A stretch of 64,000 nucleotides of DNA, taken from Chloroflexota bacterium (GTDB taxonomy: Bacteria > Chloroflexota > Dehalococcoidia > DSTF01 > JACRBR01). The DNA lies in NCBI GenBank assembly GCA_028872875.1, contig JAGWOC010000006.1:7796-71795 (forward strand), read 5' to 3'. A program made the translations under genes and the position numbers. Below the pieces are notes generated by a model that was given only the letters and a program-made list of their open reading frames with translations, was not told the DNA's origin and did not search any database. This document shows, piece by piece, positions 21,964 to 28,682 of this stretch (positions are counted from its first letter, which is position 1; the number at the start of each line of letters is the position of its first letter).

Positions 21964-22956
21964 TCACACCCGCTTGCGCCGCTCCGCGAACACGCCGAAC
22001 ACTGCGATCACTGCCAGCCCTCCGACGATGCCGGCGAACGCGATGATGGCGGGCGCAAACGACGAGGGCTTGCGGACGATCTTCTCGCCGGAGATCTGCA
22101 GATCGACGAACTGCGACACCGACTTGATGCCATCGCGCTGACCGTCGCTGCCGTTCCAGACTGCGAACGCCGCGTTCGTCTTGCCACCGGGGGCGAATGA
22201 TGGGGAGCCCTCGGCTCCCGCCAACGAGCGGACGAAGAGCACGCGCCAGCGGCCGTCCTTCCAGCGACCGACGCCACCTACGTCCTGCACGTCCGCGTTT
22301 GTCAGTGTGCCGAACTGAGCGGCAACAAGGTTCTCGACCGGCGACCCGTGTTTCTGAGCCGAGAGCGGGTTGCCGGCGGCGAGCCCCGTCTGGAACGTCG
22401 TGTCGCCGTCCTGGGGATAGAGGTCGACCTGCATGTTGGCGTAGCGCGCCCGGTTCGTGGCGAAGCCGCTGTCAACATCACGTTGCCACGCTGCCTTCCA
22501 ATGCCAGATGTTGACGCCGGCGCCCGGGTCGCCCATGCAGAACGACGGGATACGGGTCGTGCCTGCCGCCGGGAACTCCACCGCGGCAGCGTCGGTGAAC
22601 GATGTTGTCGTGTCGATAGCAGCGTCCTGCGTAGCGTCGGACCATTCGCTTAGAATGTACAGACGCTTGCCATCATGTGCGGCGCGCAGTTGCACAGCGG
22701 CGACCGTACCGCCGCCCATGGGACGCGTGATGTTCTGCGCGGAGAGTGCCACATCAACGGGTTGGACGTTGTTCCAGAATGCCGCGAACGGATCATCACG
22801 AGGCACGGAGGGCGCGGCGCGGACCTGCACGACCTGCGCCTGGGATGAGGCGGGCATGACGCCGAGGAAGCCCGTCGTCGCGGCCACGACGGCCGCCGCA
22901 AGGACGATAGCGAGGCCGGCGGCGAACCCGCGCGACGGGACTCTACGGCTCATCAT
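21964..22956 (-). CDS. Type II DMSO-reductase-family gamma subunit (EbdC/NxrC-like haem b protein) with C-terminal TM anchor
   Basis: Sec signal; DAAAVEFP, FCMG, VNIWHWKA, WKDGRWRVLFVRSL, AFAVWNG..RDGIKSVS (Met/Lys haem ligands); terminal TM plus ERRKRV. Confidence 0.88.
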   Translation of the reverse strand: MMSRRVPSRGFAAGLAIVLAAAVVAATTGFLGVMPASSQAQVVQVRAAPSVPRDDPFAAFWNNVQPVDVALSAQNITRPMGGGTVAAVQLRAAHDGKRLYILSEWSDATQDAAIDTTTSFTDAAAVEFPAAGTTRIPSFCMGDPGAGVNIWHWKAAWQRDVDSGFATNRARYANMQVDLYPQDGDTTFQTGLAAGNPLSAQKHGSPVENLVAAQFGTLTNADVQDVGGVGRWKDGRWRVLFVRSLAGAEGSPSFAPGGKTNAAFAVWNGSDGQRDGIKSVSQFVDLQISGEKIVRKPSSFAPAIIAFAGIVGGLAVIAVFGVFAERRKRV

Positions 22957-23683
22957 GTTCGCCTCCAGCTAGCTCGCCCGCCATGCACGGCGGATCTTCG
23001 CCCGGCTCCTCGGGCCGGTAGGGTTGATCCGGAAGGGCCGCGAGCGCCCCGACCCGCAGGTGCCGCCGTTCCCATGCAAGGAACGCCTTCAAGAGCGCGC
23101 CTGCGGCACCGATGACGCCCTCCGGATCCGCGACCACCATGCGGTCGCCGATCGCGTAGCCCCACCGGCCAAGGTGGTCGCGAAAGAACGCGCGTCCAGC
23201 CTTTCTACAGATGGCGACCTGGGCGCGGCCGTGATGTTCGAGCGCGTACGCTTCTTTGAGCGCGAGCAGATAGGCGAACTCCAATTCCATGGCCAATCCG
23301 TCGGGCCGCTGGCCATGCGCCTCGACGCCGAAGGCGCGGTAAAAGCCGGCGACGTCCGCCATCTGCTCGGATGCCTGGAAAAGATGCTTCGCGGTGTACG
23401 CGGTCTCGTACGCGGGGCAGATGGTCGATGTCGTCATCGTGAAGACGGTCGTGTGCGCGCGTTCCAGTGCTTCGTCGTCGCACGCATCCAGCGCGACGCG
23501 CAGATGTTGCACGTCGTCCGCGACGCCAGCATCGATGACGCCTGCGGCCTCGGTAGCGGCCGCGGCGACGCCGCGGAGGGCCTGGCACGTGTCGGGCGTG
23601 GGGTAGGCGCACGCGAGCGAGAGCAGCCTGTACACGACGGCGCGGCTCAGCGTGACCTCGTCGGCGGCGACGGTGGCATTCAT
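22943..23683 (-). CDS. TorD/NarJ/EbdD-like molybdoenzyme maturation chaperone
   Basis: CPAYETAY, ADVAGFYRAFG, RPDxLAMELEF, FFRDHLGRW motifs. Confidence 0.88.
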   Translation of the reverse strand: MNATVAADEVTLSRAVVYRLLSLACAYPTPDTCQALRGVAAAATEAAGVIDAGVADDVQHLRVALDACDDEALERAHTTVFTMTTSTICPAYETAYTAKHLFQASEQMADVAGFYRAFGVEAHGQRPDGLAMELEFAYLLALKEAYALEHHGRAQVAICRKAGRAFFRDHLGRWGYAIGDRMVVADPEGVIGAAGALLKAFLAWERRHLRVGALAALPDQPYRPEEPGEDPPCMAGELAGGEHDEP

Positions 23684-28200: not shown

Positions 28201-28682
28201 GATGTGAACTTGTACTTCGCGCGATTCTCAGCGTTCAGCTCCGGGAACCCGGCGTCAGCCCAGCGCTTCCAACCCGCCCGCACCATCGGGAACTTCAGCC
28301 GGTACGGCCCGTATAGCCGGCGCGTGAACGTAAAGCCTTTGAGGCAGCCCCGGGGGTTCCAGGCGGCCGTCGCGGTGTTGCCACGTTGGTCCGCGTAGCG
28401 CTGGACGTCGTAGTTCTGCTCGATACGCATGAGCACGCCGTTGCGGGTGAAGGCGCGGAGGCGGCAGTTGTGCGTGTCGTTCGGAGCGCAGACATAGGTG
28501 AAGCTACCGTCGTAGTGATACTGGTCCCGGTACACTTTCTCCCAGCCACGGTTGGGGTAGGACTCCAGCGGGTTGACGACGTTGACCGGCACCTGCAGGT
28601 TGCGCAAATAGGGATAGGCTGCGGCTCCCACCGCCACTACCGCTCCGGCCTTCAGGAAATCTCGTCGTGAAATCGGTTTCAT
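25227..28682 (-). CDS. nxrA: Nitrite oxidoreductase / nitrate reductase alpha subunit, Tat-exported, anammox/Nitrospira NXR lineage
   Basis: SRRDFLK Tat motif; FS0 C-x3-D-x3-C-x39-C (CAPNDTHNC...NPRGCLKG); NWSNYTWHGDQAPGHP with Asp Mo ligand; HREGPEATPYLPN; INTVPKETLV; 1151 aa. Confidence 0.92.
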   Translation of the reverse strand: MKPISRRDFLKAGAVVAVGAAAYPYLRNLQVPVNVVNPLESYPNRGWEKVYRDQYHYDGSFTYVCAPNDTHNCRLRAFTRNGVLMRIEQNYDVQRYADQRGNTATAAWNPRGCLKGFTFTRRLYGPYRLKFPMVRAGWKRWADAGFPELNAENRAKYKFTSRGTDTFVRASWDEATRYVARGLVSIARAYSGEDGAKRLTAEGYQPEMIADMHGAGTQTMKLRGGMGLTGVIGKYGMYRMSNTLALLDAHVRGVGREDARAGRNWSNYTWHGDQAPGHPFVHGLQNSDVDFNDLRYSRLLIQVGKNLVENKMPESHFLHDALERGGKIVTICPEYSPPATKSDYWIPVRPGLSDTSIFLAITRILMDENKYDADFVKKYTDLPLLIRTDTLKRLSAADVFPGYQPSLPANGPSFTRQGLTKEQYAQLGDYVVFNAASGKLRAITRDDLGERMRAANIDPKLDYRATIQLADGKSVAVLTLWEAYRNHLRDYDLDTTAEITGAPKELIRRLADDIATMKPVSIHTGEGVNHYFHATQHNRATYLPLMLTGNIGIPGAGSHSWAGNYKAALFQSTPESGPGFKGWIAEDPFDMNLDENASGSDIKAHAYTKDEEPAYWDHGDQALIVDTPKLGRKVFTGKSHMPSPTKVIWTTNVNLFNNAKWAYHMLRDVNPKVDMIVTQDIEMTASCEYSDVILPANSWSEFQELEVTASCSNPFLQIWGQTGLKPLHDTKDDLRIMAAVAEKLAGEIGDQRIADYWKFALEGKGRVYLQRLLDASATTKGYKVQDILDGKYGEPGAALMMFRTYPRIPFWDQIHDNDPFWTDTGRLNSYCDIPEAIEYGENFIVHREGPEATPYLPNVIVSSNELIRPEDYGIARDELDAEMRTVRNIRLPWREVKNTKNPLWEQGFQFYCLTPKTRHTVHSGWAVTDWNVIWASNFGDPRRVEKRQPGVGDQQLHMNPQAARDLGLADGDYVYVDANPTDRPYPGHEDHPEDPFYHVARLMLRVKYNPAYPYHTVMTKHGTFIATEKSVKGHETRADGRAVSEDTGYQASFRYGSQQSITRDWAMPMHQTDTLFHKKKIFTSFMFGGEADNHAINTVPKETLVRITKAEPGGMGGQGVWTPGTTGMSPGGEDNFMERYLDGGAMNVVRS

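Follow-up and report, generated by a model that had tools for sequence, protein, structure and literature searches.

Among the periplasmic nitrite/nitrate oxidoreductases (NXR) of Nitrospira, Nitrospina and anammox bacteria, that of Kuenenia forms tubules in the anammoxosome, while the NxrB of Nitrospira carries an Asp in place of the Cys of CTMACKS. In Nitrobacter-type systems, a prolyl-isomerase-like protein, nxrX, sits between nxrA and nxrB. In vitro, the Kuenenia enzyme works reversibly and catalyses both directions; its catalytic subunit NXR-A has the FS0 counterparts C67/D71/C75/C115, with N70 next to the Asp as the proposed substrate-binding Asn, while Met155 and Lys305 are the haem b ligands of NXR-C (PMC8387239). 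The same source gives 3Cys/1His at FS0 for the solved NAR and EBDH structures, and identity tiers of about 60% for known NXR-A, about 40% for the Nitrotoga type and about 20% for the Nar/Ebd type. Nitrospina/Nitrospira nitrite oxidisers are autotrophs (PMC11009272), and a single membrane helix is described for some of their candidate NxrC proteins (PMC3578206). Mono-/dihaem cytochromes c, cupredoxin-like proteins, an alternative NxrC and a bd-like oxidase are kept with NXR in Kuenenia, Nitrospira and Nitrospina, and soluble periplasmic type II DMSO reductases and pNar exchange electrons via c-type cytochromes (PMC3578206).

Here we analysed a window of 64,000 nucleotides from a Chloroflexota metagenome-assembled genome (MAG; assembly GCA_028872875.1, contig JAGWOC010000006.1), in which an initial annotation, made from the sequence alone, had described a complete NXR cluster. 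The enzyme type itself is known, and nxrAB or nxrA-like genes have already been reported in Chloroflexota MAGs (PMC6824324, PMC10359470). What is new is the distribution of an anchored NxrC, a small protein (X), and the occurrence of a six-gene block in differing contexts.

Gene organisation and enzyme identity

ORF and domain searches placed nxrA, a gene for the 94-aa protein X, nxrB, a NarJ/TorD-type chaperone gene and a haem-b nxrC on the minus strand at 21964–28682 (Table 1). All checkable features of the annotated cluster were found there, including its alpha, beta, chaperone and gamma genes; the 94-aa gene and the membrane-protein gene upstream of nxrA had been overlooked. With these two, the operon is an intact six-gene unit (membrane protein, nxrA, X, nxrB, chaperone, nxrC), in which 12 nt lie between the end of the membrane-protein gene and the start of nxrA, X starts 4 nt past the nxrA stop, and the end of X overlaps the start of nxrB by 8 nt. 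As annotated, a chaperone and a haem-b gamma subunit are present (Nitrate_red_del PF02613, 60.9 bits, with TIGR03482 below its cut-off at 53.8 bits; EB_dh PF09459, 122 bits), and the ORF and domain search of the locus revealed no gene for NarI or NarK within the cluster. The operon order is kept across the best 80 loci (all counts out of 80 below refer to these), with X detected by tblastn in 73, the beta subunit in 75, the chaperone in 71 and the gamma subunit in 68.

Table 1. Genes of the NXR operon, with positions in the window
Gene product	Coordinates	Strand	Evidence or remark
Polytopic membrane protein, no known family, 360 aa from ATG	28695..29777	-	ORF runs on to 29918
nxrA, putative catalytic Mo-bisMGD subunit, 1151 aa, Tat signal	25227..28682	-	PDB 7b04_B match, TAT_signal and Molybdopterin domains, FS0 ligands, trees
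Small conserved protein X, predicted cytoplasmic, 94 aa, no signal peptide	24938..25222	-	tblastn conservation
nxrB, putative iron-sulfur subunit, 415 aa from MPDVYNWQLGR, no signal peptide	23698..24945	-	PDB 7b04_A match, Fer4_11
nxrD, NarJ/TorD-type assembly chaperone, 246 aa	22943..23683	-	Nitrate_red_del PF02613
nxrC, putative haem-b subunit, 330 aa, N-terminal signal peptide and C-terminal transmembrane anchor	21964..22956	-	EB_dh PF09459

NxrA matched the Kuenenia NXR chain PDB 7b04_B with 1708.5 bits over residues 4–1146. The Pfam TAT_signal domain (PF10518) was detected on residues 4–21 (26.3 bits, cut-off 22.7), with RRDFLK at residue 6, and a regular expression located the FS0 motif C65-x3-D69-x3-C73-x39-C113, spelled C65-APN-D69-THN-C73, in which N68 is equivalent to Kuenenia N70. 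Further motifs are GGMG at 224, GVIGKYGMYR at 230 and WSNYTWHGDQAPGHP at 265; the Tat signal, the Asp-substituted FS0 motif and the GGMG..GVIGKYGMYR signature originally noted on the alpha subunit are thus all present. NxrB has the MPDVYNWQLGR start and the Cys in CTMACKS that had been described for it (CIACQTCTMAC at 35), matched PDB 7b04_A with 609.7 bits over residues 4–415, and shares about 62% identity with the NxrB of Kuenenia (tblastn); its 15 Cys, grouped 4+4+3+4, fit the ligands for three [4Fe-4S] clusters and one [3Fe-4S] cluster. NxrC matched PDB 7b04_C with 126.5 bits, and in the alignment its M141 and K278 correspond to Met155 and Lys305, which ligate the haem of the Kuenenia subunit. 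Based on these full-length matches to Kuenenia A, B and C, the Tat signal, the 3Cys/1Asp FS0, Asn68, the Met/Lys ligands, the kept operon order and the clade described below, the predicted enzyme is almost certainly an NXR of the periplasmic (Nitrospira/Nitrospina/anammox) type.

Members of the type II DMSO reductase family have diverse substrates and the host genome encodes 13 further alpha-like paralogues, points that would favour another substrate (chlorate, perchlorate, selenate, or a hydrocarbon as in Ebd). We consider this highly improbable given the score of 1708 bits to Kuenenia NXR-A vs. 198 to PcrA and 154 to EbdA (PcrA, EbdA and NarG all reached 198 bits or less), the retained FS0 Asp and proposed substrate-binding Asn, and the identity of the beta subunit to Kuenenia NxrB. 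All four proteins scored below the cut-offs of the NCBIfam type II DMSO reductase models TIGR03479/03478/03477/03482 (alpha 345.8 vs. 984.75, beta 251.2 vs. 480.7, gamma 152.3 vs. 169.85, chaperone 53.8 vs. 152.3), and are, by their sequences, related to these subfamilies yet outside the models. A NarGHI identity was likewise rejected (TIGR01580 narG 143 bits vs. a cut-off of 1084, Asp for His at FS0, no NarI in the locus).

Protein X belongs to no Pfam or NCBIfam family, and we found no study of it in the literature. Its AlphaFold2 model (pLDDT 85.6) has four helices, the best Foldseek match in the PDB reaching only an E-value of 1.6, and K6, D12, P13, E39, E40, G45, F55 and G71 are conserved among 53 sequences. 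It was also detected in one Nitrospinota locus (L045); in three Kuenenia loci, not even a profile search recovered it. X shares its position between nxrA and nxrB with the Nitrobacter-type nxrX, but the Pfam/NCBIfam search returned no prolyl-isomerase-like domain in X. The upstream membrane protein had no Pfam/NCBIfam match even at an E-value of 10, none of its 26 homologues carries a Pfam domain, and no conserved His pair was seen in 18 aligned sequences. Homologues are located directly upstream of nxrA in loci L010 (68%) and L103 (62%); with tblastn matches in 10/80 loci, this protein is confined to a sub-lineage.

Relatives, membrane anchor and host genome

In a tree rooted on paralogues from the same genome, in which no Nitrospira sequence was included, NxrA grouped with Kuenenia and Nitrospinota in a clade of 81 rows (support 100; two Nitrospinota MAG loci within), and it is 61–62% identical to Kuenenia NxrA, in line with the annotated membership in the periplasmic NXR clade. 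A separate clade at about 43% identity falls outside the 81 rows, and an IQ-TREE run rooted on it recovered the window NxrA in a 32-row clade made up mostly of Chloroflexota and Actinomycetota, with Kuenenia and Nitrospinota outside. The suggestion that the alpha subunit is closest to anammox NxrA holds among solved or characterised enzymes and fails overall, the nearest sequences being Chloroflexota and Acidimicrobiia MAG enzymes (71–92%), with a sister clade that is mostly Acidimicrobiia. The implied rarity of such a cluster did not withstand the search either, as relatives are encoded in 279 species genomes, 29 of the best 80 loci carry Chloroflexota labels, and cases in Chloroflexota MAGs have been published. 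With NxrA inside the clade of Kuenenia and Nitrospinota rather than outside the anammox/Nitrospira clade, and the contig assigned to a Dehalococcoidia-labelled MAG rather than to a known nitrite oxidiser or anammox taxon, the core claim of the initial annotation stands.

The NxrC tail past residue 288 reaches a 19-residue hydropathy maximum of 2.62, and a C-terminal membrane anchor was predicted in 25/25 Chloroflexota, 25/26 Actinomycetota and 0/11 loci of five diderm phyla; the gamma subunit is unanchored in four Chloroflexota loci of the 43% clade. Such a helix would suit a cell without an outer membrane, and as three changes suffice to explain the trait on the tree, its link to the type of cell envelope rests on few events.

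The host MAG (234 contigs, completeness 95.5%, contamination 3.5%) was searched for carbon-fixation, terminal-oxidase and nir/nor genes, as the initial annotation had proposed. Domain searches gave no match to RuBisCO_large or CdhC (ACS), Citrate_bind of ATP-citrate lyase stayed below its cut-off (25.2 vs. 26.8 bits), and POR_N had one match; at a completeness of 95.5%, the absence of a CO2-fixation pathway is therefore not proven. Two aa3/caa3 oxidases and a bd oxidase are encoded, and the genome also has two CtaD genes, a CoxB that ends in a c-type cytochrome domain, genes for cytochrome c maturation and two cytochromes b of the b6 type. NosZ is present, and the contig with the NXR operon also has a NirK-like gene; NirS was not found, and no nitric-oxide reductase was among the COX1 matches of the host. 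NarG was not found in the host or in 12 relatives at E ≤ 1e−150, and the sole NarI-family match in the bin is on a contig of 1198 bp. With no RuBisCO or ACS found and acyl-CoA metabolism genes in the window flanks, the Dehalococcoidia-labelled host looks heterotrophic, as annotated, and, judging from its gene content, aerobic or facultatively anaerobic.

Horizontal transfer within a gene pool of Chloroflexota and Actinomycetota is the probable source of the six-gene block, since NxrA was detected in 0/3 other genomes of the host genus (completeness 76–98%), the block but not its flanks is common to the host and two further genomes of its GTDB family (G033 and G005), where the surrounding context differs, and the sister clade is mostly Acidimicrobiia. 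This sister clade would also fit a mis-binned contig whose operon stems from another organism, e.g., an Acidimicrobiia bacterium, as would the fragmentation and contamination of the MAG and two other loci with labels conflicting with their tree position (L015, Kiloniellales; L035, Saprospiraceae). We regard mis-binning as very unlikely: the contig (77.5 kb) has a GC content of 69.3% vs. a bin mean of 70.3% and ranks 17/111 in tetranucleotide distance, and the nearest orthologues (92% and 88–90%) are found in G033 and G005. Moreover, in run X2 of an independent study, pieces of at least 95% likeness cover cluster and flanks to a comparable depth, one of them bridging the nxrA start and the upstream gene.

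Proposed mechanism and direction of catalysis

From what is known of the family, NxrA would be loaded with its molybdenum cofactor and FS0 in the cytoplasm with the help of the chaperone and exported via Tat with NxrB riding along, while NxrC would be exported separately and would tether the complex by its C-terminal helix to the outer face of the cytoplasmic membrane. The electron path would run through Mo, FS0, the four NxrB clusters and the Met/Lys haem b of NxrC (ligands placed by alignment), and beyond this haem to or from c-type cytochromes as the presumed redox partners. A search for RNA runs containing the stretch gave no match. We agree with the initial annotation that the direction cannot be read from sequence alone, and lean, with roughly even confidence, towards nitrate reduction over auxiliary nitrite oxidation. 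The main use would then be respiratory nitrate reduction outside the cell at low oxygen, with electrons coming from quinol via a b6-type bc complex and cytochrome c, and an exported NirK-like enzyme could draw on the nitrite formed. To the proposal as a whole (a periplasmic, anchored, mainly nitrate-reducing NXR encoded by a transferred block) we give about an even chance.

This lean is based, firstly, on the NosZ of the host and on its co-occurrence with NXR-like genes among 61 related genomes, which are non-independent by kinship (9/13 carriers vs. 5/48 non-carriers; weaker for the close orthologue type alone, 4/8). Secondly, the NirK-like gene shares the contig with the operon and, in G005, is found about 0.8 kb upstream of the genes for the membrane protein and NxrA; among the relatives, the occurrence of NirK-like genes does not follow that of NXR (4/13 carriers vs. 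19/48 non-carriers), and NirK occurs in nitrite oxidisers too (PMC3578206). Thirdly, Crp/Fnr regulators adjoin orthologous operons at 14 loci and Rrf2 regulators at 16, and the locus has none of the cytochrome c, cupredoxin and bd-like oxidase genes that accompany NXR in known nitrite oxidisers. Finally, the Kuenenia NXR is reversible, and O2 and NO3- are the acceptors given for two Dehalococcoidia genera that carry orthologous loci (L046, L052), Ca. Amarobacter and Ca. Amarobacillus, the NO3- entry being tied there to no given gene (PMC10746286). That no nitric-oxide reductase was among the COX1 matches counts against nitrate reduction, and aerobic nitrite oxidation would be just as feasible with a caa3 oxidase and the cytochrome c machinery. 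To our knowledge, the physiologically studied members of the clade (Nitrospira, Nitrospina, anammox bacteria) all oxidise nitrite in vivo, which also counts against nitrate reduction.

A mainly oxidative use of the same enzyme, in our judgement possible though unlikely, would make nitrite a supplementary donor, with electrons passing from NxrC via cytochrome c to caa3 and protons released outside, and the host a lithoheterotroph or mixotroph, i.e., an unrecognised non-autotrophic nitrite oxidiser. [quoted passage not shown] A Chloroflexi MAG with nxrAB from an oxic water layer (PMC6824324) and Planctomycetota MAGs with similar genes (PMC10732223) were interpreted as nitrite oxidisers. The lack of a detected CO2-fixation marker in the host and of RuBisCO in the 13 NXR-like carriers among its relatives, the absence of the accessory genes from the locus, the co-occurrence with NosZ and the Fnr- and Rrf2-type regulators argue against oxidative use without being decisive.

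As nxrA is a common metagenome marker for nitrite oxidation and this NXR type occurs commonly in Chloroflexota and Actinomycetota that look heterotrophic, either direction alters the reading of nitrogen-cycle gene surveys: run as a nitrate reductase, it would make nxrA counts overstate nitrification potential, and run oxidatively, it would reveal a large hidden group of nitrite consumers. More speculatively, and in our view doubtful, the anchored NXR of monoderm Chloroflexota/Actinomycetota together with X, as a small subunit or assembly factor, might serve aerobic heterotrophs as a module for nitrite oxidation, with nitrite as an extra electron donor; a large guild (soil, mine drainage, groundwater, wastewater; 279 species genomes) would then add nitrate without autotrophic nitrification. 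The anchored NxrC, the conserved protein X and the compact six-gene cassette, fit for expression, offer experimental handles.

Comparison with known systems

NarGHI and the cytoplasmic NXR of the Nitrobacter/Nitrolancea type share the chemistry and the superfamily with the window enzyme, but the active site of the latter is predicted to face outward and its cluster is without NarI. SerABC, ClrABC, PcrAB, DdhABC, EbdABC and the archaeal pNar are similar in having a Tat-exported alpha subunit, an FeS beta subunit, an EB_dh haem-b gamma subunit and a delta chaperone, but their sequence similarity to it is remote (at most 198 bits). The NXR of Nitrospina/Nitrospira belongs to the same clade and likewise combines a haem-b gamma subunit with an alpha subunit exported via Tat and a beta subunit that hitch-hikes, in autotrophs, however, whereas no autotrophy marker was found in the host of the window. 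Within the window operon and next to it, no gene for a mono-/dihaem cytochrome c, a cupredoxin, an alternative NxrC or a bd-like oxidase was found.

All three subunits of the Kuenenia stuttgartiensis NXR-ABC (PDB 7b04) align over their length with those of the window (1708.5, 609.7 and 126.5 bits), and the Tat signal, the 3Cys/1Asp FS0 with an Asn beside the Asp, the NxrB Cys pattern and the Met/Lys haem b ligands are shared. In contrast to the window, the Kuenenia locus lacks the C-terminal NxrC anchor; the operon order differs, and the window operon has no adjacent cytochrome c or NXR-T genes. The true nearest relatives are NXR-like operons of uncultured Chloroflexota and Acidimicrobiia (65–92% NxrA identity), e.g., the loci of Ca. 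Amarobacter glycogenicus, Ca. Amarobacillus elongatus and RBG_16_64_32, for which we found no biochemical characterisation in the literature. Many of these loci include MobB-FmdE, Crp/Fnr or Rrf2 genes, neighbours that the window operon lacks, but they have the same operon, protein X and the anchored NxrC in common with it.

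Layout and identity of the nitrite oxidoreductase genes

The initial annotation had read a periplasmic nitrite oxidoreductase (NXR) cluster from the nucleotide sequence, and every motif it named was recovered in the translated genes: in the alpha subunit (NxrA) RRDFLK at residue 6, C65-x3-D69-x3-C73-x39-C113, GGMG at 224, GVIGKYGMYR at 230 and WSNYTWHGDQAPGHP at 265, and in the beta subunit (NxrB) the start MPDVYNWQLGR and CIACQTCTMAC at 35. The solved Kuenenia NXR (7b04) matched alpha with 1708.5 bits over residues 4–1146, beta with 609.7 bits and gamma (NxrC) with 126.5 bits, the runners-up for alpha being PcrA (198.5 bits), EbdA (154.4 bits) and NarG (116.8 bits). 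The 15 cysteines of NxrB are grouped 4+4+3+4, a pattern that we take to fit three [4Fe-4S] and one [3Fe-4S] clusters. The passages on the Kuenenia enzyme in PMC8387239 give C67, D71, C75 and C115 as the FS0 ligands, N70 as the proposed substrate-binding residue and Met155 and Lys305 as the haem ligands of NxrC; these are matched in the window by C65, D69, C73, C113 and N68 of NxrA, and by M141 and K278 at the aligned positions of NxrC. Against NarG/NarH and the type II DMSO reductase models of NCBIfam, all scores of the operon proteins were far below the cut-offs, and by sequence these proteins are relatives rather than members of these families. The locus is genuine: an intact operon for a periplasmic-type NXR, carried by a Dehalococcoidia MAG.

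Coordinates of the operon genes and of other features discussed in the text (positions refer to the window unless a genome, contig or locus is named)
Feature	Position	Strand	Length, Pfam domains or remarks
Polytopic membrane protein gene	28695-29777	minus	upstream end of the six-gene block
nxrA	25227-28682	minus	1151 aa; TAT_signal, Molybdopterin
Protein X gene	24938-25222	minus	94 aa
nxrB	23698-24945	minus	415 aa; 4Fe-4S dicluster domains
NarJ/TorD-type chaperone gene	22943-23683	minus	Nitrate_red_del
nxrC	21964-22956	minus	330 aa; EB_dh
Alpha-like paralogue	30040-33087	minus	
NirK-like gene, host MAG	G000:C169:6376-7476		just upstream of the window start
NirK-like gene, same-family genome G005	G005:C103:3888-4967		locus L103
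NarI-family match, host MAG	G000:C86:1-531		on a 1198-bp contig
Faint-COX1 membrane protein, host MAG	G000:C100:10658-11821 (L096:1339-2811)		
Faint-COX1 membrane protein, related locus	L022:4357-5766		
MobB-FmdE fusion (example)	L034:6881-7975		
NxrA match with in-frame stops	G022:C14:395463-398498		
NxrA match with in-frame stops	G028:C1:722858-724504		

The membrane protein gene and nxrA are separated by 12 nt, and nxrA and the gene of protein X by 4 nt, while an 8-nt overlap joins X to nxrB and a 14-nt overlap joins the chaperone gene to nxrC; since these gaps and overlaps are small, the six genes are likely expressed as a single transcript with coupled translation. For the upstream membrane protein, relaxing the threshold to E 10 brought no match in Pfam or NCBIfam; it had only 26 homologues, none of them named, and is part of the block in the window's sub-lineage only.

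Protein X had a tblastn match in 73 of the 80 best-matching loci. In five of them (L019, L023, L026, L028, and L041), which belong to one Chloroflexota subclade, its gene directly precedes nxrA rather than separating it from nxrB; X adjoins nxrA in either arrangement. Profile searches found it absent from three Kuenenia loci, one Nitrospinales locus, the complete UCB2 locus L085 and four loci of a more distant NXR-like type (the 43% clade), and two more X-less loci end before its expected position. The protein has eight invariant or nearly invariant residues, none of which is Cys or His, and its predicted fold (pLDDT 85.6) is a coil leading into four helices. Neither Pfam nor NCBIfam yielded a family for it at thresholds up to E 10, the Atlas gave unnamed clusters only, and Foldseek against PDB returned no fold match (best E 1.6); a viral nucleoprotein, the best PDB profile match (E 0.039), was judged a chance hit. 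A complex prediction of X with the chaperone lent no support (score 0.00, mark 0.32), a result that counts neither for nor against such a pairing. Our guess is that X is an assembly factor or a small subunit tied to NxrA; a literature search aimed at it returned no paper describing it.

NxrC extends beyond its EB_dh domain by approximately 40 residues that include a hydrophobic helix. Among complete genes, this C-terminal helix was present in all 25 Chloroflexota and in 25 of 26 Actinomycetota loci, the exception (L060) scoring 1.58 against a threshold of 1.6, as well as in a Pseudomonadota-labelled locus inside the Actinomycetota clade and in one of two unlabelled loci. None of the 11 loci from NC10, Armatimonadota, Nitrospinota, Planctomycetota, and Acidobacteriota had it, nor did the four 43%-clade loci of Chloroflexota. 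Only three changes are needed to explain the trait on the tree (69 rows scored; L030, L056, and L060 left out). An outer membrane is generally held to be absent from Chloroflexota and Actinomycetota, and a tether on NxrC would keep the exported complex at the cell. Literature searches on broader subjects than the anchor returned no paper on this pattern.

Host contig and phylogenetic placement of NxrA

The host MAG (3.41 Mb in 234 contigs) has a completeness of 95.5% and a contamination of 3.5%. Its assignment to the class Dehalococcoidia of the Chloroflexota follows submitters' labels: public records identical at 100% over 12 kb are titled Dehalococcoidia bacterium for the same-family genome G033, and uncultured Dehalococcoidia bacterium and Chloroflexota bacterium for the same-order genomes G058 and G046, respectively. 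The 77.5-kb contig C169, on which the window lies, is compositionally ordinary for its bin, with a GC content of 69.3% vs. 70.3% and a tetranucleotide distance that ranks 17th among the 111 contigs reaching at least 5 kb. GC content falls to 0.64–0.67 across 22–30 kb of the window and is also low (0.65–0.69) across 30–38 kb; as the dip is not specific to the operon block, it was dropped as a signal of transfer. Public runs that contain the stretch carry mine drainage and sediment metagenome labels, five of them with at least half of the sampled words, one of which may be its source, and no RNA run was listed for it. In run X2, which belongs to another study, pieces at ≥ 95% likeness run across the cluster as well as its two flanks with comparable depth, and a single piece reaches from nxrA over its start into the upstream gene; none of the X2 assembled contigs bridged 21431-21994 or 29444-29737.

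A FastTree phylogeny, an analysis already proposed in the initial annotation, was computed from 93 alpha sequences (the window, 81 from 80 loci with L038 represented twice, four of the distant type, and seven own-genome paralogues as outgroup). In this sampling, whose known nitrite-oxidiser lineages were Kuenenia and Nitrospinota, the window's NxrA fell, as had been claimed, with both of them in an 81-row clade with a support of 100, and the clade at ~43% identity fell outside it. The window's NxrA pairs with that of locus L010 (92% identity), and the two are sister to eight sequences, five of them labelled Actinomycetota; these ten are in turn sister to a 20-row clade with 18 Chloroflexota, many labelled Tepidiformaceae. 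An IQ-TREE analysis (LG+G4, short search, 44 of the 93 rows picked as representatives, rooted on the 43% clade as an assumed root) gave the same picture; in it a 32-row clade (SH-aLRT 99), made up mostly of Chloroflexota and Actinomycetota, excludes Kuenenia and Nitrospinota.

The block common to the window and the same-family genomes G033 and G005 consists of exactly the six genes, and the window's other genes from 9 to 45 kb had no match in the G033 and G005 flanks (E ≤ 1e−10). Two genomes of the same order, G058 (L019) and G046 (L026), carry an NxrA from a different subclade. The patchy occurrence, the mixed-phylum clades and the changing context point to horizontal transfer of the six-gene cassette.

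Several further placements were recorded. L015 (labelled Kiloniellales, Pseudomonadota) and L035 (Saprospiraceae, Bacteroidota) sit inside Acidimicrobiia and Chloroflexota NxrA clades, L035 and the Dehalococcoidia-labelled L051 having nearly the same NxrA; the L015 and L035 contigs are probably mis-binned rather than examples of transfer. The 43% clade includes L090–L093 from same-family and same-order genomes (G011, G040, G012, and G027) and the second alpha of L038, an NC10 contig; its gamma lacks the C-terminal anchor, and the search for an X gene found none there. In the same-family genomes G022 and G028, NxrA matches contain 5–7 in-frame stops, mostly TGA, and are either decayed genes or products of error-rich assemblies; these genomes consist of 1 to 20 contigs, yet are only 64–70% complete.

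Host metabolism and the direction of the reaction

The searches for terminal oxidases and carbon fixation genes that the initial annotation had suggested gave two CtaD-type oxidases, one of them with a CoxB bearing a c-type cytochrome domain, and one CydA in the host MAG; RuBisCO and CdhC were not found, an ATP-citrate-lyase domain stayed below cut-off and POR_N had one match. Two b6-type cytochromes b, three cytochrome c maturation genes and NosZ were also present. The window's contig also encodes, ~29 kb from nxrA, a two-domain copper protein that resembles NirK and bears a twin-arginine leader (175 bits vs. an equivalog cut-off of 296); its counterpart in G005 lies ~0.8 kb upstream of the genes for the membrane protein and NxrA. 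NirS and NarG were not found. A canonical Nar operon hidden in assembly gaps was considered: a NarI-family fragment (196.5 bits) occurs on contig C86 only, with NarG and NarH found nowhere else in the bin, and this fragment may stem from contamination or mark the border of an operon that was not assembled. No nitric-oxide reductase was among the COX1 matches of the host MAG, which were CtaD-type apart from a weak 491-aa match without an NCBIfam hit. Membrane proteins of ~470–490 aa with such a faint COX1 signal (~22 bits, no NCBIfam match) are encoded on G000 contig C100 and in locus L022. A membrane protein with a faint COX1 signal was also seen ~2 kb upstream of nxrA in eight related loci, seven of them Chloroflexota.

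The window flanks encode an acyl-CoA synthetase, hydratases, a dehydrogenase and a transferase, together with polysaccharide synthesis genes. The host MAG holds 13 further type II DMSO-reductase alpha-like frames (931–1062 aa), in the window and on contigs C141, C220, C110, C185, C59, C50, C168, and C42. With 905.6 bits against TIGR03479, the window paralogue narrowly misses the cut-off (984.75); no beta or gamma gene adjoins it, a twin-arginine motif was not seen, and its neighbours are metallophosphoesterase, TetR regulator and acyl-CoA metabolism genes.

The conserved ligands support an electron wire that would run from Mo to haem b in a complex presumably exported and assembled as is known for the enzyme family. 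With the genes present, both directions are feasible. In nitrate reduction, quinol would feed electrons into a bc-type complex, from which cytochrome c would probably carry them to NxrC; in nitrite oxidation, NxrC would deliver electrons to cytochrome c and on to the caa3 oxidase. In favour of oxidation, the studied members of the clade oxidise nitrite. The Kuenenia enzyme itself is described as reversible (PMC8387239). On grounds that are not decisive, we nevertheless lean towards a use in nitrate reduction, because the host appears heterotrophic, NosZ co-occurs with NXR-like genes, orthologous loci contain Fnr-type and Rrf2-type regulators, accessory genes of nitrite oxidisers are missing, and wastewater relatives have been listed in the literature as using O2 and NO3-.

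Across 61 related genomes, NosZ was present in 9 of 13 carriers of NXR-like genes (4/8 with the close orthologue type only, 5/5 with the 43% type only) and in 5 of 48 non-carriers, counts that are given without a statistical test because related genomes are not independent samples. NirK-like genes occurred regardless of NXR (23/61 in total; 4/13 carriers and 19/48 non-carriers), and RuBisCO in no carrier and one non-carrier. Recurrent neighbours in the 80 loci were a MobB-FmdE fusion (26), Rrf2 regulators (16) and Crp/Fnr regulators (14), none of which adjoins the window's operon. The fusion, which joins MobB, an FmdE domain and a zinc ribbon and stands beside the nxr operon chiefly in Chloroflexota, presumably relates to the handling of the molybdenum cofactor.

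Occurrence and published relatives

A scan with one genome per species returned 279 related stretches, the best 80 of which showed 58–92% identity over nearly the full length. These 80 loci were labelled Chloroflexota (29), Actinomycetota (29), Planctomycetota (including Kuenenia), NC10, Nitrospinota, Armatimonadota, Acidobacteriota, and others. Within the window's order an NXR-like gene was detected in 13 of 61 genomes, and in none of the three other genomes of its genus (both at E ≤ 1e−100). The locus offers a good handle on the role of the enzyme in heterotrophic Chloroflexota and Actinomycetota.

Published precedents include an NxrB-like gene set in Caldilinea, noted in 2013 (PMC3578206), a Chloroflexi MAG with nxrAB interpreted as a nitrite oxidiser (PMC6824324), and nxrA carriers in oxygen-deficient zones that include Chloroflexota (PMC10359470). 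Kuenenia-like NxrA was found in Planctomycetota MAGs, and the NxrA of Thermogutta terrifontis, a nitrate reducer, lies in the same large clade as the enzymes of those MAGs (PMC10732223). Ca. Amarobacter (L052) and Ca. Amarobacillus (L046) are listed as heterotrophs using O2 and NO3-, in text passages that do not name the gene underlying the NO3- entry (PMC10746286). The thermophilic Chloroflexota nitrite oxidisers Nitrocaldera and Nitrotheca are reported to carry a Nitrotoga-like NXR from a different clade (PMC11009272), and the identity level given for the Nitrotoga and Hydrogenobaculum enzymes in PMC8387239 matches that of the 43% clade. The rarity implied in the initial annotation does not hold against 279 relatives and the published Chloroflexota nxr genes: the operon is no exception and adds one more example to a widespread and previously noticed kind.
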